Positions 226-25,747 are shown, counted from the first letter of the stretch. The stretch: 32,000 bases of DNA from Caedibacter taeniospiralis (GCF_002803295.2 NZ_PGGB02000001.1:1-32000); one strand, 5' to 3'. Made by a program: numbers and translations. The notes: generated by a model from the letters alone, not told the origin.

Positions 226-1861
<1,636 letters not shown>

Positions 1862-1976
1862 AAGGTACGAGTATGATGTTGAATTTTTAATGTTGAATGT
1901 TGAATTTTTGATGTTTGAAGTACGAAAGAAATTAAGAAAGAGCGAGAAGTATTTGAGTGTTTACAAATGATGTTTT

Positions 1977-2092
1977 TTCTAGAGACTAGAAACTAGAGAC
2001 TAGAAACTAGAAACTAGAAACTAGAGACTAGAGACTAGAGACTAGAAACTAGAATACTTCTAGAAACTAGTCTCTAGTCTCTAGTATCTAGT
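1977..2092. repeat. Tandem CTAG-heptamer tract (about 16 units of ACTAGAA/ACTAGAG, then the complementary TCTAGT units) immediately 5' of tRNA-Ile
   Basis: Direct reading gives TCTAGAGACTAGAAACTAGAGACTAGAAACTAGAAACTAGAAACTAGAGACTAGAGACTAGAGACTAGAAACTAGAATACTTCTAGAAACTAGTCTCTAGTCTCTAGTATCTAGT. The two halves are partly self-complementary. Confidence 0.9.
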
Positions 2093-2169
<77 letters not shown>

Positions 2170-2311
2170 TCTAGAGACTAGTGTCAAGAGACTAGAAACT
2201 AGGGATTGAATCTTGCTGTGCGAGATGATTTTTTAAATGAATCATCGCGAAGCGATTCGAGTCTGGTTTCTAGTTTCTAGAGTAAGCGCAGCGAGCGTTC
2301 TAGTATCTAGA
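2170..2311 (+). mobile_element. CTAG-heptamer palindromic element, ITS copy 1 (142 bp), between tRNA-Ile and tRNA-Ala
   Basis: The sequence is TCTAGAGACTAGTGTCAAGAGACTAGAAACTAGGGATTGAATCTTGCTGTGCGAGATGATTTTTTAAATGAATCATCGCGAAGCGATTCGAGTCTGGTTTCTAGTTTCTAGAGTAAGCGCAGCGAGCGTTCTAGTATCTAGA. It is identical to 2388-2529. Confidence 0.9.
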
Positions 2312-2387
2312 GGGGCCATAGCTCAGCTGGGAGAGCGCCTGCTTTGCACGCAGGAGGTCAGGAGTTCGATCCTCCTTGGCTCCACCA
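2312..2387 (+). tRNA. tRNA-Ala (anticodon TGC)
   Basis: The sequence is GGGGCCATAGCTCAGCTGGGAGAGCGCCTGCTTTGCACGCAGGAGGTCAGGAGTTCGATCCTCCTTGGCTCCACCA. It has a G3:U70 pair, anticodon loop TTTGCAC and an encoded CCA. Confidence 0.97.
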
Positions 2388-2529
2388 TCTAGAGACTAGT
2401 GTCAAGAGACTAGAAACTAGGGATTGAATCTTGCTGTGCGAGATGATTTTTTAAATGAATCATCGCGAAGCGATTCGAGTCTGGTTTCTAGTTTCTAGAG
2501 TAAGCGCAGCGAGCGTTCTAGTATCTAGA
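2388..2529 (+). mobile_element. CTAG-heptamer palindromic element, ITS copy 2 (142 bp), between tRNA-Ala and 23S
   Basis: It is a base-for-base duplicate of 2170-2311, offset by 218 nt. Confidence 0.9.
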
Positions 2530-2535
2530 GCCGAG

Positions 2536-2550
2536 ATCTTTAACAATTTA
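2536..2550 (+). promoter_or_regulatory. boxA-like antitermination element in the spacer upstream of 23S
   Basis: ATCTTTAACAATTTA matches the core of the enterobacterial rrn boxA (TGCTCTTTAACAATTTA). It sits in the expected spacer position. Confidence 0.6.
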
Positions 2551-2729
2551 TTATAGAGTAATGACCAAGAGAATAAGCGCAAACGGCGGATGCCTTGGCA
2601 GTCAGAGGCGAGGAAAGACGTGATAGCCTGCGAAAAGCTTCGGGGAGCTGGCAAATAAGCATTGATCCGAAGATATCTGAATGGGGGAACCCACCTCACT
2701 CATAAAGTGCTCAGCACTTTATTCATTTC

Positions 2730-2762
2730 GAGAAACTAGAGATTGGAAACTAGAAACTAGAG
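2730..2762 (+). repeat. One-sided CTAG-heptamer tract inside an expanded 23S helix-9 region (expansion roughly 2693-2768)
   Basis: GAGAAACTAGAGATTGGAAACTAGAAACTAGAG lies inside a stem closed by CCTCACTC / GAGTGAG. A perfect small hairpin (ATAAAGTGC TCA GCACTTTAT) sits next to it. The region is much longer than its E. coli counterpart. Confidence 0.6.
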
Positions 2763-2837
2763 TGAGTAGAGGGTGTAATTTGTGCATGAATGAGTATTTT
2801 AAGAGTGGGGTATCACTGACGTAAGTTAAGTGAGGCG

Positions 2838-2868
<31 letters not shown>

Positions 2869-3200
2869 TAGGAAAAGAAATCAACCGAGATTCCCTAAGT
2901 AGCGGCGAGCGAAGGGGGAAGAGCCTGGTATACTTTAGCATGTGAGTTAGTCGAACATTCTGGGAAGGATGACCATAGCAGGTGATAGTCCTGTAGACGA
3001 AAGCTTGGATGTGGAACTAGGTATACGAATAAGTAGGGCGGGACACGAGAAATCCTGTTTGAAGAAGGGGGGACCATCCTCCAAGGCTAAATACTACTGA
3101 CTGACCGATAGTGAACCAGTACCGTGAGGGAAAGGCGAAAAGAACCCCGATGAGGGGAGTGAAATAGAACCTGAAACCGTTTGCGTACAAGCAGTCAGAG

Positions 3201-3345
3201 CTAGAAACTAGAGACTAGAAACTAGAGACTAGAGATTAGGGGTTGAAGCGCTTCGCGATGATTAATTTACAAAAATAAATCATCTTGCAAAGCAAGATAC
3301 GACTCCTGGTTTCTAGTCTCTAGTTTCTAGTTTCTAGGAGACTAG
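3201..3345 (+). mobile_element. Intervening sequence / CTAG-heptamer palindromic element at the 23S helix-25 position
   Basis: It is inserted between the conserved GTACAAGCAGTCAGAG and TGATGGCGTACCTTTTGTATAATGGGTCAGCGA. The arms are CTAGAAACTAGAGACTAGAAACTAGAGACTAGAGATTAG and TTTCTAGTCTCTAGTTTCTAGTTTCTAGGAGACTAG. The core is the reverse complement of the 6397-6529 core type. Confidence 0.85.
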
Positions 3346-3765
3346 TGATGGCGTACCTTTTGTATAATGGGTCAGCGAGTTACTTTTAGTGGCGAGGATA
3401 ACTGAATAAGGGATCCGTAGCGAAAGCGAGTTTTAATAGAGCGGACAGTCGCTAGGAGTAGACCCGAAACCGACGCGATCTATCCATGACCAGGTTGAAG
3501 GTTGGGTAACACCAACTGGAGGACCGAACCCGGTAATGTTGCAAAATTATGGGATGAGTTGTGGATCGGAGTGAAAGGCTAATCAAGCGCGGAGATAGCT
3601 GGTTCTCCCCGAAAACTATTTAGGTAGTGCCTTGTGAATGACTCGTTGGGGTAAAGCACTGTTTCGACTAGGGGGATTTTGCGATCTTACCGACTCGATG
3701 CAAACTTAGAATACGACGAAGTTGAATCACGGGAGACACACGGCGGGTGCTAAGGTCCGTCGTGG

Positions 3766-3803
<38 letters not shown>

Positions 3804-3838
3804 GTTATCGCTAAGTGGGAAACGATGTGGGAAGGCAT

Positions 3839-3902
<64 letters not shown>

Positions 3903-3957
3903 GAGTCGGCCTGCGCGAAAGATTTAACGGGGCTAAGCGATACACCGAAGCTGCGGG

Positions 3958-4392
3958 ACTAGAGACTAGAGACTAGAAACTGGAGACTAGAGGAGATAAG
4001 ATGCCGTATCACAATTTATCAGTATATCAGAAGGCATATCAGTTAGCGCTGGAGCTACACGTGGAGAGTATGAAGTGGCCGCGGATAGAACAGTGTGAGA
4101 TTGGGAGTCAATTAAGGCGAGCGAGCAAATCCATATGTGCGAACATAGCGGAAGGGATGGGCAAGCAAGCGAGTGAAAAGGAAGTAAGAAGGTTTGTTCA
4201 GATAGCGATAGGCTCTTGCGATGAATGCCGGGTGTGGCTGGATTTTGCAAGGGACTTAGGGTATATCGATCAGGAGAGTCATAGGGGCTACGATGAGAGG
4301 TATTGCGAAGTTGGGCGAATGTTAAGAGGTATACAGAGAAGATATAGCTGATGTCTATTCTAGTATCTAGTTTCTAGTATCTAGTTTCTAGT
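3958..4392 (+). mobile_element. ORF-bearing intervening sequence at the 23S helix-45 position, bounded by CTAG-heptamer arms
   Basis: It is inserted between CCGAAGCTGCGGG and CGGTAGGGGAGCGTTCTGTAAGC. The left arm is ACTAGAGACTAGAGACTAGAAACTGGAGACTAGAGG. The right arm is TTCTAGTATCTAGTTTCTAGTATCTAGTTTCTAGT. Confidence 0.88.
4001..4351 (+). CDS. 23S rRNA intervening-sequence protein (S23p-type four-helix-bundle family)
   Basis: The 116-aa ORF has family hallmarks: Y.KAYQLALEL, QLRRASKSICANIAEG, IAIGSCDEC and ARDLGYI. A GGAG lies about 7 nt upstream of the ATG. The position inside a helix-45 IVS is the classic context for this family. Confidence 0.85.
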   Translation: MPYHNLSVYQKAYQLALELHVESMKWPRIEQCEIGSQLRRASKSICANIAEGMGKQASEKEVRRFVQIAIGSCDECRVWLDFARDLGYIDQESHRGYDERYCEVGRMLRGIQRRYS

Positions 4393-4946
4393 CGGTAGGG
4401 GAGCGTTCTGTAAGCTTATGAAGGTGCATTGAGAAGTGTGCTGGAGGTATCAGAAGTGCGAATGCTGACATGAGTAACGATAAATAAGTGAGATTCTTAT
4501 TGGCCGAAAACCCAAGGTTTCCTACGCAATGTTAATCAACGTAGGGTAAGTCGGCGCCTAAGGCGAATCCGAAGGGAGTAGTCGATGGGAAACAGGTTAA
4601 TATTCCTGTACCGATGGTAGTTGCGATGGAGAGACGGAGAAAGCTAGGTCTGCCTGGCGGATGGTAGTCCAGGTGAAAGCGTGTAGGTAGTGCACTTAGG
4701 CAAATCCGGGTGTATGATGATCTGAGGCGTGAGAGGGAACAGGGCTCTACGGGGTTCTGCCAAGAGATTGATGCTCGGCTTCCAGGAAAAGCTTCTAAGC
4801 ATAAATTACCATTGACCGTACTGTAAACCGACACTGGTGGGTGGGTAGAGAATACCAAGGCGATGAGAGAACCCAGGTGAAGGAACTAGGCAAAATGACA
4901 CCGTAACTTCGGGAGAAGGTGTGCCTCATTAGGGTGAAGGACTTGC

Positions 4947-5045
4947 CTGACCACTAAATTCTATGATGGATGAAAGCTGTTGAGAGTTGTAGAGATAGAC
5001 AATTTGTTGATAGCCTGTTGTAGGACGTGGAATTTAGTGGTCAGG
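4947..5045 (+). other. Extended hairpin (23S helix-63 variable region) closed by a 15-16 bp perfect inverted repeat
   Basis: CCTGACCACTAAATTC (4947-4961) and GAATTTAGTGGTCAGG (5030-5045) enclose about 68 nt that are absent from the E. coli homologous hairpin. Confidence 0.6.
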
Positions 5046-5185
5046 TGAACGTCTGGAGCGTGAAGAGGTTGCAAATACCAGGTGGCTGCGACTGTTTACT
5101 AAAAACACAGCACTCTGCGAACTCGGAAGAGGAAGTATAGGGTGTGACGCCTGCCCGGTGCTGGAAGGTTAATTGAAGGGGTTAT

Positions 5186-5486
5186 CCTACCACTTAATTA
5201 TTTTGGAGTTTGATATGTATTGTGTATACGTGATTTATTCGAAAGAATTAGATAGTTTTTACTTGTGGGTTATAGTGAAAACCTAAGGAAAAGGATTGAT
5301 TCGCATAAGTCGGGTAGAAGTAGATATACAAGCCGAACGAGAGATTGGATTCTTGTCTACTACGAAGCTTACGCAAGTGAAAAGCTTGCTAGGTTAAGAG
5401 AAGCTAAATTAAAGCGAGCGAATCGAATGAGGAGTTTGTTGTATAAAGGCTTAAGAGAAGAAATATCAGAGTAATTAAGTGGTAGG
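5186..5486 (+). mobile_element. 301-bp insertion in 23S domain IV (hairpin just 5' of helix 69), bounded by a 15-bp perfect inverted repeat and carrying a GIY-YIG ORF
   Basis: CCTACCACTTAATTA (5186-5200) is the exact reverse complement of TAATTAAGTGGTAGG (5472-5486). The flanks GAAGGTTAATTGAAGGGGTTAT and AGAAGCTCTGGATCGAAGCCCCAGTAAACGGCGGCCG are contiguous in other 23S rRNAs apart from a short loop. Confidence 0.85.
5215..5474 (+). pseudogene. Small GIY-YIG nuclease-family ORF (UPF0213/YhbQ-like), frameshifted near codon 17
   Basis: The ATG at 5215 gives MYCVYVIYSKELDSFYLWVIVKT*, which contains the GIY-like strand. The frame from 5265 continues (V)GYSENLRKRIDSHKSGRSRYTSRTRDWILVYYEAYASEKLARLREAKLK, which contains the YIG, Arg and Glu motifs. 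The two parts join only after a 1-nt (or 2-nt) frame correction around 5260-5266. Confidence 0.7.
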
Positions 5487-5509
5487 AGAAGCTCTGGATC
5501 GAAGCCCCA

Positions 5510-5552
<43 letters not shown>

Positions 5553-5553
5553 C

Positions 5554-5591
<38 letters not shown>

Positions 5592-5664
5592 CGATGGCCA
5601 CACTGTCTCCAACTGCGACTCAGTGAAATTGAAATTGCTGTGAAGATGCAGCTTTCCCGCGGCT

Positions 5665-5696
<32 letters not shown>

Positions 5697-6095
5697 CTTT
5701 GCACTGGACTTTGAGAATATTTGTGTAGGATAGGTGGGAGACTAAGAGATTCGTACGCTAGTATGGAAGGAGTCGACGTTGAAATACCACCCTGATATTT
5801 TTGGAGTTCTAACTCAGACGAGAGTCGAGGACAGTGTATGGTGGGTAGTTTGACTGGGGCGGTCTCCTCCTAAAGAGTAACGGAGGAGTACGAAGGTGCA
5901 CTCGGCGCGGTCGGAAATCGCGCCAAGAGTATAAAGGCAAAAGTGCGCTTAACTGAGAGAGTGACGGCTCGATCAGGTACGAAAGCATGCTATAATGATC
6001 CGGTGTTTTTTTTTGAATAAGACATCGCTCAACGAATAAAAGGTACGCTAGGGATAACAGGCTTATAAATTCTGAGAGTTCCTATTAAAGAATTT

Positions 6096-6130
<35 letters not shown>

Positions 6131-6341
6131 TGGTGCAGAATCTGCCAAGGGTTTGGCTGTTCGCCAATTAAAGTGGTACGTGAGCTGGGTTTAAAACGTT
6201 GTGAGACAGTTTGGTCCCTATCTGTTGTAGAATTAAGAAACGAGGCTGAGATCGACGCCAGTACGAGAGGACCGACTAGAACTAGCCTCTGGTTCGGCAT
6301 CTATTTCAACAAAGGCATAGCCCAGTAGCTACGTTCGGAAT

Positions 6342-6374
<33 letters not shown>

Positions 6375-6396
6375 AGCCTCAAGATGAGATCTCCCG

Positions 6397-6529
6397 TCTA
6401 GAGACTAGAAACTAGAGACTAGAAACTAGGAGTTGAGTCTTGCTTTGCAAGATGGGTTGTTTTTTATAAATCAATTCATCGCGAAGCGATTCAAGCTCTA
6501 GTTTCTAGTCTCTAGTTTCTAGTCTCTAG
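6397..6529 (+). mobile_element. Intervening sequence / CTAG-heptamer palindromic element at the 23S helix-98 position
   Basis: It is inserted between AAGATGAGATCTCCCG and TTAAGGGTTGTTGAAGACTACGACGTTGATAGG. The arms are TCTAGAGACTAGAAACTAGAGACTAGAAACTAGG and CTCTAGTTTCTAGTCTCTAGTTTCTAGTCTCTAG. The core contains the hairpins CTTGCTTTGCAAG and CGCGAAGCG. Confidence 0.85.
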
Positions 6530-6668
6530 CTTAAGGGTTGTTGAAGACTACGACGTTGATAGGCTGGCTGTAGAAGTGCAGTAATGTATGAAGCTAACCA
6601 GTACTAATTGCCCGAGAGACTTGGTTATTACTCTATGATAGATTGTTAGAGCTTTCTGCTCGCAGGTT

Positions 6669-6796: not shown

Positions 6797-6819
6797 AGGC
6801 ACCTCAGGGTGCCTTTTTT
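6797..6819 (+). terminator. Rho-independent terminator of the rrn operon
   Basis: AGGCACC TCAG GGTGCCT is a 7-bp GC-rich stem followed by TTTTT. Confidence 0.8.
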
Positions 6820-15585: not shown

Positions 15586-15793
15586 ACCGTTTTCGCCCTG
15601 TGCGGCAGTGAACGCTTCAATATTTATCTTATTAATTTCATTATTTTTCTAAGCTGCCTGTACGGCAGTGGACTAAAGAAGATATAGCTGCTAAAAAAAT
15701 AGCAATTTCTAAGCTGCCTGTACGGCAGTGGACAACAACCTTCATATGTGGGGCTTCCGCAATCTTTTCTAAGCTGCCTGTACGGCAGTGGAC
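15586..15793 (-). CRISPR. Type I-F-style CRISPR array: 4 repeats of 28 nt (the trailer-most one degenerate) and 3 spacers of 32 nt
   Basis: The minus-strand repeat GTCCACTGCCGTACAGGCAGCTTAGAAA sits at 15646-15673, 15706-15733 and 15766-15793. A degenerate copy GTTCACTGCCGCACAGGGCGAAAACGGT sits at 15586-15613. The periodicity is exactly 60 nt. The repeat closely matches the I-F consensus GTTCACTGCCGTACAGGCAGCTTAGAAA. Confidence 0.9.
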
Positions 15794-15939
15794 TGCAAAA
15801 TTTTAGATTAAAGCGCAGATAAAATAAAGGGTTGCTGACGCGTTGCCAATAAAAACCCTTATTTTTTAGTCATACTCTAAAGGCTTGATTTTTAAAGAAC
15901 TTCCAGCAGCCCCCCAAAAAAAGGGTTCAGCCTCAATCG

Positions 15940-16855
<916 letters not shown>

Positions 16856-17080: not shown

Positions 17081-17374
17081 TTATAACAACAGCACCGACT
17101 TAAACACATCTGCAACTGCCTTAGCGCCATAGTGTTCTATTTTATTGCGACCATTTTTGCCCAATTTGTAAAAACGCAGGCTATCCATTTCTGGATCATA
17201 ACTATCCAAAAGTTTCATTTTCAACACACACCATTGATCGGGGCTTATGTCACATTCAAATACTGAGTTTTGCACCCTAACCCCATAATCCTGACAGGTC
17301 TCTGCAATTTTTCTTAAACGCCGAACGCCAGTTTCTTCCTTCAGTGATACATCATAAGTGATTAAAATAAGCAT
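17081..17374 (-). CDS. cas2: CRISPR-associated endoribonuclease Cas2
   Basis: The 97-aa product begins MLILITYDVS and contains VQNSVFEC. It is the last cas gene before the array. Confidence 0.9.
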   Translation of the reverse strand: MLILITYDVSLKEETGVRRLRKIAETCQDYGVRVQNSVFECDISPDQWCVLKMKLLDSYDPEMDSLRFYKLGKNGRNKIEHYGAKAVADVFKSVLLL

Positions 17375-17460
17375 CTGCTTCTCCCGAATAGCCTGTGTTT
17401 TTATTCACTTTAAAACTCACGTAAACGCACAGGCTGTTTTAACAAGACCATTAGAACCCT

Positions 17461-18703
17461 CTATTTAGGCATAAATGGTGGGTAAGCATCCAAGTCACCT
17501 CTTAAATGCCGCGCCAATAAAAGTGCCTGAACATGTGGCAATAACCCGATTTGCACCTCTTCACCCAAAAATGGGTGTTGGATCGTTTCCTGCTTACGGT
17601 CGCTGCGAGCCATGGAGAGCGGAACGCGAGGGCGAGTAGACCCGGGTAGCCTTGCGCTGTTGATCAGCAAGCGACGTGCCGAAGGCGCCAGAGCGAAGTC
17701 TGTGAAACAGCTTTTACCCAAGGCGTAGAGTAGAATCCCGGGCAAAATTTATACCGCCGAGGATAGCCGATTCGATTTTGTGTATGGATATACAAAATCT
17801 ATCATGAGGCCCGAGGCACCCTATTTGTAAAGTTACAAGCAATAGTTTTCTGGTATCATCCTTGAGTTTTACAGAACCACCCACTTCAATTTCAAAGTCC
17901 TGAGGTTTCACTTGACGTCGATTAATTAAACTCAACACCATACGATCAACAAACCAGGCACGAAACTCCTCCAAAATATCTTGTGCCAAACTATCTCTAC
18001 CGGGGCGCACTTGATGAAGAAATCCCATCTGTGGATCAAGCCCAACCCCCTGCAAAGCAGCACTGATGTCATTACCGACGACGCTATACAAAAATGATAG
18101 CATTGCATTTACAGGATCTAATGGTGGACGACGACTACGAGTATTAAATTGAAAATCTGTCCGAGCCACAGGTAGGATTAATTCATTAAAAACACCAAAG
18201 TAAGCAGATGCCGCCTCGCCTTCTAAACCTAAAATAAGCTCTAGACTTTGTGCTTTTTGCAAGCGGCGAAGTGCATAGCTTATTTTCTCAATGGCATTTT
18301 CGACTTCGCTATTTTGGTCATGATTTCGCACCCTACGATAAAGTACCGCACGAGATGAATTAAGCTTGGCAGCAATAACATTTCTGGCAATAGCCACGGG
18401 ATTGAGCTCGGCTATTTTATACTGTGTTTTACGCAATATAACATTACCATTTTGTCTACCATGCAATCGTCCAAGAAAACGTCCATACTCGGTAAAGAAA
18501 GCAAGGTGAACATTGTTTTCACCGCAAAATCCCAGTAAGAAGGGGGATAGCATTACATTGCCAAAACAGTAAATTGCCTGAATAGCATGAATAGGTAACT
18601 GCATTACTTTCTGCTTTGCGACTTCAATAACAAGCGTTTCACGTTCTTTGTGCAAATAAGCGCCCTGCCTAGTAATGTAAAGGGTGTTTTGTAATTTCTT
18701 CAA
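17461..18703 (-). pseudogene. cas1: cas1 (type I-C) interrupted by a 220-bp element at 17601-17820
   Basis: The upstream piece (18703-17821) ends ...DDTRKLLLVTLQ(I). The downstream piece (17600-17464) reads (D)[45 protein letters not shown]. Deleting 17601-17820 gives one 340-aa ORF of typical Cas1 length and C-terminus. Confidence 0.9.
17601..17820 (-). mobile_element. GC-rich non-coding insertion element, copy 1 (220 bp), inside cas1. On the gene's sense strand it reads GGTGCC...GCAGCG
   Basis: It shares a ~70-nt left module and a ~104-nt right module with 19747-19934 and 23600-23803. It has no ORF. Boundaries come from a three-way alignment and are good to about +/-3 nt. Confidence 0.85.
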
Positions 18704-19338
18704 TCCAAATCCTCCCTGAAAAGAGCATTAACATACAGCTGACTTTTATCTTTGAACGTCAACTTTGGATTACATAAATCATATAAGGAACAGGCATTAC
18801 ACTTTTTTTCATATTTAACTTTCGGTGTAACACCAGCCTGCAACAAAAGACGCGTTTCATCAACAATCTGTAAAGTCTCATCACGTAAAGCCTTCGTTAA
18901 TTCAACATCAATTCGGTGACGACTTTGCCAATACCACATTGCTGCGCGAGGAATGACTGTATTAAGCATCTCTTCCAGACACAACGCCTGCGCGCACAAC
19001 TGCACAAGATCAATATGATCTTCCTTAGGTTTCCCACGTTTATACTCAACAGGAAAACATGAACCTGTTTTAGTATCAAGTTCAACAAGGTCAAGCTTGC
19101 CAATCAACCCAATCTTAGGCGCTGATACATGCACACCACGTTCATAACGTATACCTTTACGCGTCTCAGGCACCCCGCTATCCACTCGCTGATGCAACTG
19201 CTGTCCTTGTGCGGTCAACCAATTCTCAGCCCATGCCTGCTCATTGTGAATAAGAGCGCATTGCCTGGGGCAGAAAGCATAGTGTTGCAAAGCAGAGAGG
19301 GGGATCAGGAGAGAATCGTCCAATTTAAAATCCATCAA
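18700..19338 (-). CDS. cas4: CRISPR-associated exonuclease Cas4
   Basis: The 212-aa product has an N-terminal Cys (YAFCPRQC) plus a C-terminal CNACSLYDLC cluster, and the RecB-like motifs (DLVE, EYKRGK). It overlaps the cas1 start by 4 nt. Confidence 0.88.
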   Translation of the reverse strand: MMDFKLDDSLLIPLSALQHYAFCPRQCALIHNEQAWAENWLTAQGQQLHQRVDSGVPETRKGIRYERGVHVSAPKIGLIGKLDLVELDTKTGSCFPVEYKRGKPKEDHIDLVQLCAQALCLEEMLNTVIPRAAMWYWQSRHRIDVELTKALRDETLQIVDETRLLLQAGVTPKVKYEKKCNACSLYDLCNPKLTFKDKSQLYVNALFREDLD

Positions 19339-20349
19339 TTATTTCAGGCTTAAGACCTTCAAGATCAGCAAGTGAGAAACTTCCATCAGGATTCACCGTT
19401 AACGATCGATGTACTTTTGCTGATGAGTGTTGCCCCGATCTGGAATTATGCAGCCACCAGATCAGTTTTTCCACCGCCATGGAGCCTTCTGGTCTTGCAG
19501 AAGAAGCATCACCCTCAAACAACTTTGGGAATATAGATTTTATGGTCTCTGCATCCGCATCGCTAAAACCAGTTTTTTCGGCTAGCTGCGGCGACATCGC
19601 GCCATAGGCAACGTAAACAGCAGTATCGACTCTGTGTTTCATACCCATGGTATCGGAACTTTTTTTACTGCCATCGCCATCACCACTAACACTTTTGGTA
19701 ATTTGCGTACTGGTAATGCTTACTGGCTCAATACTGAAAGCCGTAGGGTGCCTCGGGCCTCATGATAGATTTTGTATATCCATACACAAAATCGAATCGG
19801 CTATCCTCGGCGGTTTGGATAAAGCTGTTTCACAGACTTCGCTCTGGCGCCTTCGGCACGTCGCTTGCTGATCAACAGCGCAAGGCTACCCGGGTCTACT
19901 CGCCCTCGCGTTCCGCTCTCCATGGCTCGCAGCGAATGAATACTCACCGGACCACGGATAGGAATTGATACCCCATCCTTTTCTTCACTTTTAAAAGCAA
20001 ATAGTTGTCCAAAAGCACGCACATCGAACCAAGTTTCACAAGCTTTTTTTGCAGCAGTTTCTGGCTTGATTTTTTTAGCGTTTAAAACATCTTTACCTAG
20101 CACACCTTCAGCCCTGGCTCGAAGACTGTGATATTCATCCGTCTTCTTTTCATCTGACTGAACAAAAATAGCCTGGCCCGCATCTTGGAGGCGATCTCTT
20201 GCTTTTCGCTTCAAACATACATCTGTAACTTCGCCAAAACCATCATAATCTGTACGTGGCCGGTTACCATTTAAAGGATCACCGTTCGGATTAGCGTTTT
20301 TTACGGAAAAAATAATGGCGAAATCGATTTTTTTGCTCAGTGAATTCAT
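19325..20349 (-). pseudogene. cas7: cas7 (csd2, type I-C) interrupted by a 188-bp element at 19747-19934
   Basis: The N-terminal piece reads MNSLSKKIDFAIIFSVKNANPNGDPLNGNRPRTD...GVSIPIRGPVSIH. The C-terminal piece reads (T)AFSIEPVSITSTQITKSV...MGMKHRVDTAVYVAYGAMSPQLAEKTGFSDADAE.... Deleting 19747-19934 yields a single 278-aa ORF. Confidence 0.9.
19747..19934 (+). mobile_element. GC-rich non-coding insertion element, copy 2 (188 bp), inside cas7 and inverted relative to copies 1 and 3
   Basis: The plus strand reads GGTGCCTCGGGCCTCATGATAGATTTTGTATATCCATACACAAAATCGAATCGGCTATCCTCGGCGGT...CACAGACTTCGCTCTGGCGCC...CCATGGCTCGCAGCG. This is the reverse complement of the plus-strand reading of the other two copies. 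It lacks the ~32-nt central segment of copy 1. Confidence 0.85.
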
Positions 20350-20475
20350 TGTTGCTCTCCTTCATTGGTAGTTAATTCTATTTCGGATTTGGTTACCCAC
20401 ACACCCTTTTCCAACTTATGCTCCCTTAACCATTTTCGTTGGCAATGAAAGCCCAATAGGTACTCCCCGCTTAAC

Positions 20476-22365
20476 TTATCTTTTGAGGAAGCGAGTAAAA
20501 GCATCACAAATATCGTCCAACAATCTGTTGTAAGCAGCCTCTAAAGGTGGCAACTTAACACGTAACCGCTGTTGATATGGAGTCAAAGCTTCGCGAATAC
20601 TCTGCCAAGTTGATACCGGATGATGAGCAAAACGCTGCATTAAACGACTAGCATGTGTAGTGCGATTTTTTTCTCCCGCAATAGATATTGCCATTTCCTC
20701 AATCATTTCAGCTACTGCCAGCAGCCGCCCAAATAGATAATCCCGCCCTGTATATTTCATATCAAGTGACATAGCATATTCTCTCCTTTTATTTAAATTG
20801 GGTTGGCGTTCTGGGTGGTGAAAACCGCGATAGAGCGCACAGGCGACACCAAGGTTTCTCTCCCATTCCCAAAGTTCACTGTTGTTTCTGTTGCTGGCTC
20901 GACTGACAGCCAGGTTGACAATATCCATAGGTAAAGCTCTGCCTTCCAAAATACAGGGCATCATCCTTTCATAAAGGCTCTTTTTAAGCGCTTCATTGCT
21001 TTTCACCATATCACCATAGGTAGCTTGCAATATATTCCAAGGTGAAGGAGCACTGACAGACCAAAACACTGTTGTTTTTGGCTTTTTATTATTACCTGAC
21101 TCGACTTCCTTGCTAATCCGCTGCGGCCAAGCCAAATGGCTGTGCCATTTTTCGATAGTTTGCACGTAATCCTTAGCCATAAAATCGCGATAATAAATAA
21201 TCGCCATACGTCCAGGAGTGGCAGAGTCCAGCCCCATAATAACGATGCTTTCCTGATCCTTGAGTCTGGCGATGCGACCATCGAAATAACCTGCCATGTA
21301 TCGATTTAACGCTTTGACAAAGTTTTGTCCAAGGTCGCTCGTTACATTAATTTCAGTAGCCAATGAATCTTTTCCATCATCAGTAACTTCCTCGAAATTG
21401 TCCAGCTCCAGACTTGGCACCAATGGAGCAGGGATAGGTTTGCCTGATACTGCCCATGCCACCACCACCTGATCTCCATTCTTGCTAGCCTGATTAGCAA
21501 TCAGCCAACGCAATGTATTATGAGCTTTTTGGGTAATATCAAAACCGACGTTCGCAACCTGCTCTCCATCTGTAAATCGACCACGGAAAGTAAAGCCGGA
21601 TGTATCATTGGCTGATACCAGCTTTGCTTTATCACCTGTATGTCTAAGCTTTGCGGGATGATTTGAGGCTGAGGGTTGCAATAGTCCAGATACATAACAA
21701 AGCTCATCCTTCCCTGAACCTTCGGCATCAAAAGCTATCCATGACTGTTGTATTGATTTATCTTTCCAAGTATCTGGAAATAGGTCGCCTGGAGTAATAA
21801 CACTCCAGCAAACCATTGCGTTACCCTGATCCAGTTCGCCTTTTTCCTTCGGTAGGGTTTTGAATATTAAAGGCAAAGGATTTTCATCTGTTACCTCAAA
21901 TGGCCAAGAGGTTAAAAGCCGATTATTTTCATCCATATAACAAACTTTAGCGTTTATTAGATCTTCTATCACAGTCTGCTTAATGATGTAATTGCATACC
22001 GCTTGAACCTTTGGATGACTCACGCCAGAGTTACACCATTCTCTGATTTGTGACCGATATCCATCGAAATAAGGTTTTTTCTTCCCACCGAACTTTTCAT
22101 AGTCGGCTGCAACATATTGCAGCTTGTCCGCTAAAGGGTGTGGTGCTTCGCCACTACTTCTTCCTGCAGACTTTTCTGTAGATGGCAAAATGATCTGCGT
22201 CTTTTCTAAAACTTTTGCACCTATAAAATTTCCATCAAGATCTATTTGAATATTTATATGGGCATTCTGCATAGTATGGCTTGTCGGCATTAGCTGCTTT
22301 TCTTCCGGCAAATCCAGCGTCATAGCTTTTTCATAGGTCTCGTAAAGCTTTGCCATCCAGCTCAT
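20476..22365 (-). CDS. cas8c: Cas8c (Csd1), type I-C large subunit
   Basis: This is a 629-aa intact ORF between cas5 and cas7, in the canonical I-C position and size. It overlaps the cas5 stop by 4 nt. I have no specific motif check beyond context and size. Confidence 0.75.
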   Translation of the reverse strand: MSWMAKLYETYEKAMTLDLPEEKQLMPTSHTMQNAHINIQIDLDGNFIGAKVLEKTQIILPSTEKSAGRSSGEAPHPLADKLQYVAADYEKFGGKKKPYFDGYRSQIREWCNSGVSHPKVQAVCNYIIKQTVIEDLINAKVCYMDENNRLLTSWPFEVTDENPLPLIFKTLPKEKGELDQGNAMVCWSVITPGDLFPDTWKDKSIQQSWIAFDAEGSGKDELCYVSGLLQPSASNHPAKLRHTGDKAKLVSANDTSGFTFRGRFTDGEQVANVGFDITQKAHNTLRWLIANQASKNGDQVVVAWAVSGKPIPAPLVPSLELDNFEEVTDDGKDSLATEINVTSDLGQNFVKALNRYMAGYFDGRIARLKDQESIVIMGLDSATPGRMAIIYYRDFMAKDYVQTIEKWHSHLAWPQRISKEVESGNNKKPKTTVFWSVSAPSPWNILQATYGDMVKSNEALKKSLYERMMPCILEGRALPMDIVNLAVSRASNRNNSELWEWERNLGVACALYRGFHHPERQPNLNKRREYAMSLDMKYTGRDYLFGRLLAVAEMIEEMAISIAGEKNRTTHASRLMQRFAHHPVSTWQSIREALTPYQQRLRVKLPPLEAAYNRLLDDICDAFTRFLKR

Positions 22366-23066
22366 AACGATGCCTCCTCTGTATCCACATCCAGCAAGTT
22401 ATCTCCGATAACAAATTCTTTAGCTTTCATCTCACGAATAAAACGACGAATTTCGCAACTCCCTGGTCTTGGAAATTCCACAACACCATTTTTCATAACG
22501 GCATGCCAAAAACGGCTATGAAATTCATCTTTTCCCGTCTCGTCCGGGTAATCGAAACCATGAAACATCAAACCAAACGATAGCTCATCAATGTTGTCAT
22601 AGGCTCCAAGACCTTCTCCAAATTCGCAAGGCTCTACATAACCCTGGCAATCTCTTACACCAAGAAAAATATCTTGCCGCCCACCCTTTTCCAGCATGCG
22701 CTTTGCGATAGCAAAATGTTTTCCATCAATTTGATCCGCTGCCAATTCAGGACGATACTTGTTCATTTCAAAGTGTGCCTCTACCTGATACTCAACTTCG
22801 TGCAGAAAGGTATATATAGCCAAGCTATTTCCACCACCCCAAACCAGAGGTTTAGTGCCTTTGGTTTGAGTTCGAATGGACTTTATTACCCGAACCCTAT
22901 CCACATGCCAAACGATAGTTGGTTTCTAATAGATTGACTTGAGAACACCCTTAATCGCCTCATAAGTAGGCACATGGTAAGAGCATTTTTCCCCACCAAT
23001 CCTGGTAATTGGGTCGGTAAATAAAGCGTAACGTCCCCAAAGTCTGAAACTAATAATGTTTTTCAC
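22362..23066 (-). pseudogene. cas5: cas5 (cas5d, type I-C) with an in-frame TAG at 22926-22928
   Basis: The minus strand reads ...[28 protein letters not shown].... Cas5d proteins have a conserved (A/S)IYWKP here, so the TAG replaces TGG (Trp). The likely start is the GTG at 23066, preceded by AGGAGG. The N-terminus [19 protein letters not shown] is typical of Cas5d. Confidence 0.85.
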
Positions 23067-23074
23067 GTTACCTC

Positions 23075-25747
23075 CTATAAAATCTGAGTTGTCATCATAC
23101 CTACGCACTCGGTTCCAAGACCAAAACTTTTGCTGTAATACATCTCATCCAGGTAGTAAATGCCATGCCCAGGCTGAATTTCGTGCACTGCTTTCTCCTT
23201 TTTTAGTTTGTCCCAAACGTTAGGAAAGACATTCACGCTATATTTTTGCGCTTGTCGTAACAATTGATAGTAGCGACGAGCATTAAACTCCTTTGCTACA
23301 GAGCAAAGCTCAGCTACCAGCTTTTGCCCCTTCTTACCATATTGTACAATGACTGCCTGGGTTGGAGCGTCGATAGCCTTAAACTGTTTACCCGCCTCCA
23401 TAAAAGCCTGTCGCAAGAGGGGGACTTTCCCTTCACGATCAGAAAAATTTGAATTACATCCGATGCGAGAACTTAACAGGTTGAGCAAACTATCGTTCCT
23501 GTGATCTTTTCCTTTCAAGGGGTAGCTCATATCATCTGCTCGATCAAAAAAATAATAGCGAAAATACTGCTTGATCGCTGCCGGTGACAATACATCTTCC
23601 GCTGCGAGCCATGGATAGCGGAACGCGAGGGCGAGTAGACCCGGGTAGCCTTGCGCTGTTGATCAGCAAGCGACGTGCCGAAGGCGCCAGAGCGAAGTCT
23701 GTGACGTTGAGGCGGACGGCCCGGGCAAAATTTATACCGCCGAGGATAGCCGATTCGATTTTGTGTATGGATATACAAAATCTATCATGAGGCCCGAGGC
23801 ACCCTTGTACCCTTCAGAAAGAACCCTCTTCGCCTTCTCTTTGCCTATTTCAATTTCCTTCAGCATTCCTGTACTTTCACTGTCCGGGTTCACAATAAAA
23901 ACCTGCCCTTTGATCAAATTTCCTTGCTCATCTTTCAGATTGCCATTCCTATTACAGCGTCCTGCAGCCTGAGCAATAGAGTCCAAACCTGCCAAGAAGC
24001 GTATCACAGATGCAAAGTCCACATCAACGCCTGCTTCAATCAGTTGCGTTGAGATACAAAGCACGGGCTTTCGATGCTTCAGGTGCTTCTTAATTAGATA
24101 TAGGAAAATCCTGCGATGACGCGGACATTGATTTGTACTTAAATGGAATAAAGACGATGCATTCACCTGCTCGACACAACGTTGATACAACTCCTGCGCC
24201 CATGTTTTGGTGTTGACAATTACCAAGCAACTCCCGTGTATCTGGAGCTGCTCTACCGCCAGTGTAGATATCTCTGCGACATTCCAACCACCAGGCTTTA
24301 TTTGGTTATAAATACGTACCCGCCGAAGCTCAATAAAATGCCTATCAAAGTCGCCTGCCAGTTCATTTTCTTGGGGAATGACTAACTGCCCTTTATCAGG
24401 TTTTTTTAATTCGTTCAGTAAAGGCTGAGTCGCTGTACAAAGCACTACCGTAGTATCGCAACGCTGCACGAAAAAATTCATTGCGTTACAAAAAATATGC
24501 ACACAATTAATTGGCAATGTCTGAATCTCATCAAAAACAAGCACACTTTTAGCTAACTGATGCAAACGCCTAACACCTTTGGTTCCACCACTAAACAAGG
24601 TTTCCAGTAACTGCACCATAGTGGTCAGAACAATGGGAGCGTCCCAGTTTTCCGATACCAGTTTGGCGTGCCAGGTTTGCTGTTCAGACTCCAAATTAGA
24701 GTGATGTTCCAATACCCACGACCTAGCATCATCTCGATGCTCTACCACTTCGCGTATCACCTTAGCATTTTGCTCAATGATAGACGTGTATGGGATAACA
24801 TAGATAATACGCTCCAATCCGTGATGCTGAGCATGATGTAAAGCGTAACGTAAACTGGCGTAAGTTTTACCTCCACCTGTTGGTACAGTTAGCGTATAAA
24901 GCCCTTGGGACTTATACGCGTTACTCTTACAGTTATCGGAAATTTCCCGACGCAATTCATCTACATAGTTTCGCACTGACAGCCCCGAAAGATAATTTTC
25001 CAAGCGACCAATAGCAACGTCCCAATTAATTGATCCTGACTTTCCTAGGCGCTCTTTTAATCTGACAGGATCTTCAAACTCAGCGCTATTGAGTCTGTCA
25101 GCATCAATTAGGCAACTGAACAAAAAGCGGGTGAAAAATCCCAGGTTAAAGTAATCGATCATCGATGGCTTTTCAAAATTGACAAACTCTTTCAGTTTAT
25201 CAAACAGACCTTTTACCAACTCAACATTTGCAATTTGCTCAATTTTATCAAGTATCTCTTTCTCTGCGACCTGCCGACACTCGTCAAGGTTTACTTTCTC
25301 ATCAGCCTTACTCATACGATCAGAAAATACAGGCTTATCATCAATTCCAAAACAATCGATTAAACCACTGTGATGAGAGGCAATACATAAAGCCAGCATT
25401 TGACCACACAGCTCTCCTTGCCCAGCACCACCAATACGTTTCAGCTTCTGCCAAACCAAGTGAGCACCTGCTGTTGAGTGATCGACTTTCCCTTTCATCC
25501 CTTTAGCATCAACATAATCATCCTCATCAGGGTTAATTTCACCTGTAGCTGACTTTATATAGCGTTGAAACTCTTGGCTGTACTTTCCGAAATCATGCAA
25601 CAAACCAAGCAACCTGCCAGCATTTTCCGCACCCATTTTACTGGAAAAGGTACTAGCAATCTCTCCAACCTCATACAAATGAGTATGAAGAAACTGACAT
25701 TCTCCATCAATTTTTCTTTTGTGTGCAATAAATTTAGGCTTACTCAT
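23075..25747 (-). pseudogene. cas3: cas3 (HD nuclease plus SF2 helicase, type I-C) interrupted by a 204-bp element at 23600-23803
   Basis: The N-terminal HD motif (LLGLLHDFGKYS), Walker A (TVPTGGGKT), DEIQ box and later helicase motifs (AAGRCNR) are intact. The upstream piece ends ...RVLSEGYK. The downstream piece reads (E)DVLSPAAIKQYFRYYFF.... Deleting 23600-23803 gives an 822-aa ORF. Confidence 0.9.
23600..23803 (-). mobile_element. GC-rich non-coding insertion element, copy 3 (204 bp), inside cas3, in the same orientation as copy 1
   Basis: It has the same left and right modules as the other copies. Its central segment is ATAAATTTTGCCCGGG plus the unique stretch CCGTCCGCCTCAACGT. The length is a multiple of 3, but the element carries an in-frame TAA (23732-23734). 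Confidence 0.85.

Follow-up and report, generated by a model that had tools for sequence, protein, structure and literature searches.

A previously undescribed mobile element, with family members of 190-290 bp, has recently jumped into three genes (cas1, cas7 and cas3) of one type I-C cas operon of Caedibacter taeniospiralis. We studied the operon within a stretch of 32,000 nucleotides, called the window in the following. Taken as a whole, the observations are probably best explained by a non-autonomous, lineage-restricted and non-coding element, the insertions of which are tolerated in an eroding operon.

Copy A (17601..17823, plus strand, 223 bp) lies in cas1, copy B (19744..19934, minus strand, 191 bp) in cas7 and copy C (23600..23806, plus strand, 207 bp) in cas3. 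An earlier note on this DNA had described three copies of one repeat in these genes and none elsewhere in the 32 kb. Sequence comparison confirms both statements, i.e., the modules of the copies show 97-100% identity over 70-122 nt, far beyond chance, and no fourth copy or relic was found in the window by BLASTN (word size 7) or an nhmmer profile search (--max). The lengths given there (220, 188 and 204 bp) are each 3 bp short, as the empty alleles discussed below fix the limits of each insert to the base. A fourth AGGCACCCT at position 6806 was rejected as an element copy; it is the unrelated terminator hairpin of the 5S rRNA. Compared to the 291-bp form of the element, copy A misses about 69 nt of the central region, copy B shows the largest internal deletion and copy C a deletion unlike the others. 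Diagnostic bases separate copies A and B (subfamily 'type 1', terminal base A) from copy C (subfamily 'type 2a', terminal base T). Copies A and C are antisense to their cas genes (2/3 copies), while copy B has the opposite orientation. All three window copies are found inside the 8.7-kb operon (p ~0.02 for a uniform model within the window), such that their clustering is suggestive but not overwhelming.

The earlier note had proposed to compare related strains for empty sites. Such polymorphism is present at all three sites, which are empty in a sister strain (Logan contig L023, ~99.7% identical). In the resulting three filled/empty pairs, 0 bp are duplicated and 0 bp are lost at insertion, in agreement with the claim that no duplication is left behind. 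Both strains differ by 14 substitutions and 2 indels, and their sequence divergence is ~0.25%. We infer that cas1, cas7 and cas3 were each hit independently, that the inserts stem from at least two source subfamilies and that all of them came after the window strain had split from its sister.

All cas genes of the operon are encoded on the minus strand, as is the type I-C CRISPR array (16491..16855; 6 repeats, the last one degenerate, and 5 spacers). Intact ORFs are found for cas2 (17081..17374, 97 aa) and cas4 (18700..19338, 212 aa; Pfam Cas_Cas4 on the orthologue). Copy A splits cas1 (17461..18703) into fragments 17461-17600 and 17824-18703, copy B splits cas7 (csd2; 19325..20349) into 19325-19743 and 19935-20349, and copy C splits cas3 (23075..25747) into 23075-23599 and 23807-25747. 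Each insert destroys its gene by introducing frameshifts or stops. When the element is removed in silico, Cas1 (340 aa), Cas7 (278 aa) and Cas3 (822 aa) are all full-length, so that the proposed restoration of each ORF holds. The restored Cas1 aligns to the type I-C Cas1 8d3l with E 4e-95 and gap-free at the junction. Likewise, the restored Cas7 is gap-free across its junction when aligned to solved type I-C proteins, and an intact Cas7 of 277 aa with exactly the predicted junction is present in public data.

Two further lesions affect the operon. The gene cas5c (22362..23066) carries a premature TAG at 22926-22928 (TGG->TAG, window position 22927). This in-frame stop had been reported by the earlier note and is real, since the sister strain shows TGG and a 234-aa ORF. 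The accompanying statement of 'no other decay' is wrong: cas8c (csd1; 20476..22365) is shortened by an 8-bp deletion (GAGGACTT) near 20491. The deletion removes the conserved last ~47 aa, which results in a product of 629 aa (vs. 675 aa) and a gap of 126 nt before cas7. That is, the window holds no functional type I-C gene set, given that cas3, cas7 and cas1 are split, cas5 has the TAG and cas8c is truncated. Lesions are also observed in two other lineages: the sister strain shows its own cas8c lesion (a +1 frameshift) and a third lineage (~80% nucleotide identity) a GAA->TAA nonsense mutation in cas7.

Beyond the window, the plasmid pKAP298 of C. taeniospiralis carries four full-length copies (291 bp) and one copy of 113 bp, and 19 metagenome contigs provide one copy each, with every site and flank being different. 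These further copies support the mobile, non-autonomous family that had been postulated, and the 291-bp version on pKAP298 and metagenome contigs supports the view of the window copies as deletion derivatives of a longer form. Concerning the suggested larger parent with a transposase, none was found; the 291-bp form is the longest one and non-coding. Its longest open frame has no homologue when used as a protein query, so the element is considered non-coding and is not captured in annotations. Other copies cut the Pfam domains of GlgC, DotM, an sCache_4 sensor protein, an AAA_28 ATPase and a YhcG nuclease, and the ORFs of a STAND NTPase and a Mu/Tn7-like transposase run open into element copies. 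The orientations relative to the interrupted genes are distributed about 6 to 7, i.e., both directions occur. Since varied genes are interrupted in both orientations, cas genes appear to be no special target. No element match was observed within a phage collection and viral contigs, and a scan of 185,579 species genomes with each element end gave no true match. The sole hit of these scans, a 23-nt match in a Bacteroidota glucanotransferase gene, was rejected as a chance match (L028).

The full-length element shows ~56% G+C (vs. ~42% for the genome) and is delimited by CGCTGCG…CACCCT plus one variable base. Only its ends (no more than 33 nt on the left and 70 nt on the right) are required, such that internal-deletion derivatives are still mobile. 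Terminal inverted repeats are absent: the left end CGCTGCGAGCC… and the reverse-complemented right end AGGGTGCCTCGG… do not match, and no inverted-repeat pair joining both ends of one copy was found. When reading the sequence directly, a 10/13 direct repeat GGATAGCSGA… is visible near both ends. The right end contains a 12-bp imperfect hairpin, located 23 nt from the end, while hairpins of the left end are weak or distant and none is convincing. Both strands and both ends, folded as RNA and as DNA, do no better than shuffled sequences.

Insertion takes place directly 3' of WWCNN(T). Among 9 sites, C at -4 as well as W at -5 and -6 are always found (9/9) and T at -1 in 6/9, such that only the C at -4 is a strictly fixed base. 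The insertion point is followed by T in 17/28 copies. For the terminal base of the element, we observe A > G = T and C in 0/28 copies. All type 1 copies end with A (8/8), i.e., the terminal base partly follows the subfamily and is thus carried by the element. This speaks against a base made anew at each event. Rejected were a copy from the target, as the filled/empty pairs show that the base is not target-derived, and complementarity to the -1 base of the target, to which no relation was found.

Mobilization would take place in trans, through an enzyme that recognizes both ends despite their difference and does not create a duplication. An IS200/IS605-type HUH transposase acting on single strands ('peel and paste') appears to be the best fit. 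The left and right cleavage sites of IS200/IS605 elements resemble each other. Here, the C at -4 from the cut is common to the left-flank motif (n=9 sites) and the 3' end of the element (C-C-T-D), with all other positions being degenerate. Similar in many respects are PATEs, which derive from IS200/IS605 elements (HUH Y1 transposase, single-strand transposition) and are non-autonomous: they are small and non-coding, show neither terminal inverted repeats nor target duplication and insert seamlessly beside a short one-sided motif. Their two ends differ, with a subterminal hairpin on the right, and internal-deletion derivatives are still mobile. In contrast to PATEs, no partner tnpA/tnpB was found within ~230 kb of related DNA, the motif is loose (its single fixed base is C at -4), a clear left-end hairpin is missing, orientations are mixed and the terminal base is variable yet transmitted. 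Further observations stand against the overall explanation. Orientations are mixed within 6 kb, while IS200/IS605 elements usually show a replication-strand bias. Furthermore, each of the young copies A, B and C has lost a different internal part, whereas the majority of copies elsewhere are full length. Via tblastn, neither IS200 / IS608 TnpA nor further reverse transcriptases were identified in the ~230 kb, and no transposase of any kind was found linked to the element. We found no literature on Caedibacter together with IS605 or MITEs, and transposases are not mentioned in the supplement of PMC7297999. The lack of inverted ends and duplication, the loose CNNN-type cleavage and the transmitted 'free' terminal base could also reflect a not yet described transposition system, maybe with an unrecognized enzyme, and/or the element could be preferentially recruited to CRISPR-Cas loci, or selected there, acting as a mobile tool that knocks out defence; we rate this combined reading as rather improbable.

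RNA-based and intron-based routes were considered as well. An RNA copy of the element (reverse-complement strand, 5'-AGGGUGCC…CAGCG-3') might serve as the template of a group II intron reverse transcriptase that acts at a nick, with the terminal base being a non-templated addition at the cDNA end. The base distribution (A > G = T, no C) indeed resembles polymerase end-addition, a group II intron reverse transcriptase adjoins one of the copies on pKAP298, and template jumps could yield internal deletions. However, this intron is dead (frameshifted ORF, ~110 nt of the 5' end missing compared to relatives), subfamilies largely pass on their terminal base instead of gaining it anew, every copy keeps both ends with no 5'-truncated copies, and there is neither a portable promoter nor a known ribozyme that defines the RNA ends. 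We thus consider retro-mobilization quite unlikely. That the element is itself the detached 5' part of the pKAP298 intron is scarcely credible. The plasmid copy at 38855-39145 directly abuts the intron body and one Rfam group-II-D1D4-6 alignment ran 54 nt into the element, but this extension gains only 4.5 bits at low posterior probabilities. In addition, the model of related IIC introns starts ~35 nt after GUGCG, so that ~110 nt are missing and not 291, no alignment is obtained between the element and the 5' ends of these introns and the flanks of all other copies are unrelated. Given Rfam and three related introns, we rejected the pKAP298 group II intron as an incidental neighbour. A group II intron or fragment thereof was likewise rejected as the identity of the element, based on the lack of an Rfam intron match, the antisense location of 2/3 copies and a would-be 5' exon flank that is not conserved. 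The earlier note had speculated about a bridge- or guide-type RNA within the conserved end. In a related reading, the element would be a remnant of IS110/IS1111 or IS605, with its conserved end encoding the bridge RNA or omega RNA by which insertion is programmed. Its richness in G+C, its non-coding nature and its roughly suitable size, as well as its lack of inverted ends and duplication, are compatible with this reading. Still, no Rfam family is found even at E up to 10 (noise only, for both a deleted and a full-length copy), folding is unremarkable (z-scores -1.7 and -0.9) and no recombinase or TnpB gene adjoins any copy. The flanks of 28 sites share neither an 11-14-nt target nor a duplicated CT core; since target sites are too diverse, RNA-programmed insertion is disfavoured and programmed targeting is already largely refuted. 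The claim is thus without support and the reading highly improbable.

Concerning the cluster itself, the type I-C operon is probably dispensable in this obligate Paramecium endosymbiont and is eroding. Insertions into neighbouring essential genes would be purged by selection, while those in the operon would persist. Given the operon's own further lesions and those of the two other lineages, the most likely origin of the cluster is that the operon is dispensable and tolerates insertions. Alternatively, the insertions might have been favoured because the I-C system is costly or harmful (targeting self, the R-body plasmid or a prophage), with the element providing the fastest knock-out. Within 6.2 kb and at ~0.25% divergence, 3/5 lesions are insertions, and function was lost independently in three lineages, which selection and relaxed selection yield equally. 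On the other hand, none of the 5 I-C and 3 I-F-type spacers matches pKAP298, the element or related DNA, many non-defence genes are disrupted too, and a single insertion suffices, such that the four further lesions look like neutral decay. Selected silencing thus seems unlikely. A reversible off-switch of immunity, also raised by the earlier note, would let the population toggle immunity by seamless excision. Precise loss would restore cas1, cas7 and cas3, as insertion neither duplicates nor deletes bases, and filled as well as empty alleles are present in public data. However, the cas5 nonsense mutation and the cas8c 8-bp deletion of the filled strain remain after excision, and three excisions would be needed at once. 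Furthermore, the 14 substitutions and 2 indels show that the empty strain forms a lineage of its own and did not arise by excision. The switch is not supported and very improbable. Among the three options of the earlier note, simple accumulation in a decaying locus is best supported, i.e., by the two further lesions, the lesions of other lineages and the unrelated genes hit. Since the element also breaks many other genes, the case is one of ordinary genome erosion in an endosymbiont, caused by an unusual transposon, and not of an anti-CRISPR device.

The element represents a new family, which is non-autonomous and lacks both inverted ends and target duplication. Classical MITEs, e.g., the Correia elements of Neisseria or the QMITEs of Coxiella, feature terminal inverted repeats and a fixed target duplication (e.g., TA). 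The element resembles MITEs, which are abundant in host-restricted bacteria, in being short, multicopy, non-autonomous and located in or beside genes, but it shows neither terminal inverted repeats nor a target-site duplication. With Rickettsia palindromic elements (RPEs) it shares the nature of lineage-specific short repeats within protein genes of an obligate intracellular bacterium; for RPEs, the mobilizing enzyme is not known either. RPEs are typically in frame and tolerated in the protein, whereas the element copies destroy their genes. As in the IS-mediated cas inactivation of other bacteria, insertion knocks out cas genes and the locus then decays. Here, in contrast, the agent is a tiny non-autonomous element with three independent insertions in one operon.

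The type I-C system was reported as an immune system of C. taeniospiralis (PMC7297999, probably the same genome), and the operon of the window carries five inactivating lesions. Recent transposition in an obligate endosymbiont is documented base for base, for an element that is invisible to annotation pipelines. The three exact filled/empty pairs and the target motif provide material for identifying the transposase. Should this enzyme be something other than an IS200/IS605 TnpA, a new mechanism of mobilization would be indicated. For now, we see a clear case of genome erosion in an endosymbiont and not a new biological principle.

A repeat search of the window finds two near-identical modules at three places, twice on the plus strand and once inverted, i.e., copy A at 17601..17823 (+), copy B at 19744..19934 (-) and copy C at 23600..23806 (+). 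All three lie inside the minus-strand type I-C operon. Their three-way alignment shows a common left module of about 105 nt and a common right module of 70-86 nt, joined by a middle that varies through deletions. Internal deletions are tolerated by the element (G+C 56%), and both ends, which are unlike each other, are kept in every copy. The left end reads CGCTGCGAGCC… and the right end …GAGGCACCCTD; no terminal inverted repeats are found in the alignment. A hairpin of 12 bp is placed 23 nt inside the right end, and a direct repeat GGATAGCSGA… lies close to both ends. A search of 5.8 billion proteins gives no homologue for the longest open frame of the element. Neither BLASTN (word size 7) nor a profile search (nhmmer --max) finds further copies or relics in the 32 kb.

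Repeats of another kind occur in the rRNA region (226-6628), where the 23S gene spans 4066 nt (2925 in the Rfam model) and the 16S gene 1636 nt (1533 in the model). Inverted pairs of CTAGAAA/CTAGAGA heptamer arrays are placed within and around these genes (296-327/394-421, 1979-2092, 2731-2761, 3197-3239/3309-3337, 3957-3992/4359-4392 and 6398-6429/6496-6529). These arrays look like hairpin-forming intervening sequences made of heptamer repeats. Furthermore, a 177-nt unit is duplicated in the 16S-23S spacer (2136-2312 and 2354-2530, 94% identity), such that the same repeat block follows both tRNA-Ile and tRNA-Ala.

Frame arithmetic shows that removal of the common core plus exactly one base restores each cas gene. 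When aligned to solved type I-C proteins, the Cas1 and Cas7 so restored show no gap across the junction. The predicted intact Cas7 is present in public data (exact look-up), namely on contig L023 of a sister strain, a Logan assembly of SRR28719869 that is present in four samples. L023 is 99.6-100% identical to the window over the aligned segments, and all three element sites are empty. For copy A (cas1), the window reads ttacggt[CGCTGCG…CACCCTA]tttgtaa and the empty allele ttacggt^tttgtaa; for copy B (cas7), attcatt[CGCTGCG…CACCCTA]cggcttt is opposed to attcatt^cggcttt; and for copy C (cas3), catcttc[CGCTGCG…CACCCTT]gtaccct to catcttc^gtaccct. Neither target duplication nor loss of host bases is seen at the three filled/empty junctions. 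The three copies reported in the earlier note are correct, with boundaries now exact to the base from the empty alleles, and its reading as a mobile element is right, since filled and empty alleles both exist. According to diagnostic bases, copies A and B are of one type ('type 1') and copy C of another ('type 2'), and the internal deletion differs in each copy. The three are therefore independent insertions and not local duplicates.

Insertion is seamless, with a one-sided target motif. Among the nine readable left flanks, C is found at position -4 in 9/9 (p ~8e-7, given that C makes up ~21% of bases), A or T at both -5 and -6 in 9/9, and T at -1 in 6/9. The base following CACCCT is A in 14, G in 7 and T in 7 of 28 copies, and never C. 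This base is brought by the element and not by the target, because the empty alleles show so; the next base, i.e., the true flank, is T in 17/28. When copies are sorted by internal diagnostic bases, all 8 type 1 copies end in A and the two type 2c copies in G. Type 2a copies with the same sequence over 130 nt still differ in this base. The terminal base is partly inherited, and we read it as a transmitted position that varies more than its neighbours and is almost free of sequence constraint.

The sole plasmid record matched by the element is pKAP298 of Caedibacter taeniospiralis, at five places with 100% identity. Four of the five have a length of 291 bp, and the window copies derive from this form by internal deletion. 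The fifth (113 bp) retains just 33 nt at the left end and 84 nt at the right. Using a degenerate right-end pattern, we retrieved 19 metagenome contigs with the element, most of which are broken within it. Each has its own flank, which therefore adds at least 19 further insertion sites. Sequence searches do not find the element in phage records, viral contigs or 185,579 species-representative genomes, the lone match among the latter being a 23-nt chance match. Among the papers searched, none links Caedibacter to such an element. The family appears to be undescribed and confined to Caedibacter. On pKAP298, an A+T-decayed relic of the right end (48085-48130, 81% identity, ending …CACCCT) suggests that much older insertions exist too. 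The contig L010 shows a second repeat family (GGCTACTTGCCNGTAATTCC…; 248-267, 352-371 and 2894-2913) in inverted orientation on both sides of a 769-aa ORF, and in one of its copies the repeat is joined to the terminal 25 nt of the present element.

A long reading frame is open up to the element in 9/19 metagenome contigs and in several plasmid copies. Pfam scans of nine such element-abutting frames show domain models that are cut off at the junction. The match to GlgC begins at model position 39 of 245, DotM stops at position 148 of 172 and an AAA_28 ATPase at 93 of 164. An sCache_4 sensor protein is truncated past its sensor domain, and a YhcG-type nuclease is missing the N-terminal half. Two further ORFs, of a STAND NTPase and of a Mu/Tn7-like transposase, continue open into the element, and on pKAP298 the end of the portal gene is replaced by one copy. 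Given these interruptions, the idea that the element targets cas genes is not supported. Orientations relative to the interrupted gene are about 6 to 7, so the element is not an intron and there is no selection for one orientation.

We infer that mobilisation would occur in trans, through an enzyme that does not cut the target in a staggered manner. Of the systems known, the single-strand mechanism of IS200/IS605 elements fits best. It works without inverted ends and without duplication and inserts 3' of a short motif, as is observed here. The left-flank motif (C-N-N-T) and the 3' end of the element (C-C-T-D) both have C at -4, and the element has the right-end hairpin and the GGATAGCSGA… repeat near both ends. 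However, the left end has no convincing hairpin, and orientations are mixed. No partner gene is found in ~230 kb of related DNA. We also considered mobilisation by reverse transcription, which would be in line with the terminal base pattern (A > G = T, no C) and with the one plasmid copy (38855-39145) that adjoins a group II intron (pKAP298, 39146-41058). This class IIC-like intron is, however, dead: domains V-VI are intact, but its reverse-transcriptase ORF (341 aa) is frameshifted with the maturase region in a different frame, and its 5' ~110 nt are absent exactly where the element adjoins. Furthermore, no alignment is obtained between the element and the 5' ends of related introns, and the terminal base is largely inherited. 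The idea of a bridge RNA or guide RNA, speculated on in the earlier note, or of an omega RNA fails because the targets are diverse and neither RNA-family searches nor folding give a signal. Provisionally, the element is best filed as PATE-like, i.e., akin to non-autonomous IS200/IS605 derivatives, without inverted ends or target duplication.

Near the I-C locus, an orphan CRISPR array (15614-15798, minus strand) has at least three type I-F-like repeats (Rfam CRISPR-DR4); the window contains no I-F cas genes for it. Between this array and the I-C array lies a Fic-like remnant ORF (15940-16473). Within the I-C array (16722-16823, minus strand), spacers 1 and 2 have the same first 17 nt (AAACATTGTGTTATCAT), which is unusual for spacers acquired independently. 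Spacers of neither array match the element, pKAP298 or the related DNA compared, and thus there is no sign of self-targeting in this DNA. The CRISPR locus of the C. taeniospiralis genome paper (3 repeats, 2 spacers; PMC7297999) fits the orphan array and not the I-C array. The same paper presents '7 CAS Type IC proteins' as a CRISPR immune system (PMC7297999); 5/7 cas genes are broken in the window sequence (17081-25747). A MAG labelled Cellvibrio sp. (MGB3609053.1, 158-kb contig) has an annotated Cas7 of at least 90% identity, i.e., either the I-C locus was recently transferred horizontally or the bin is mislabelled.

The operon is encoded on the minus strand in the order cas3-cas5-cas8c-cas7-cas4-cas1-cas2, followed by the six-repeat array. 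A comparison of the window, freed of the elements, with L023 gives 14 substitutions and 2 indels. The TGG codon that L023 has in cas5 is TAG in the window, where an 8-bp deletion in cas8c also leaves 629 aa of an ancestral 675-aa protein. L023 preserves the conserved C-terminus of cas8c and a stop overlapping the cas7 start, with an extra A (+1, position 3084) that frameshifts the gene. In L029, a lineage further removed (~78-84% nucleotide identity), the cas7 element site is empty and cas7 carries a GAA→TAA nonsense mutation (~575). Inactivating lesions are thus non-overlapping in the three lineages, with five in the window strain. This pattern indicates that the operon has been released from purifying selection, or is selected against. 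Three recent insertions within 6.2 kb are somewhat above the expectation of a uniform model. A reversible switch of immunity, one option of the earlier note, finds no support; the best reading is an accumulation of insertions in a dispensable, decaying operon.
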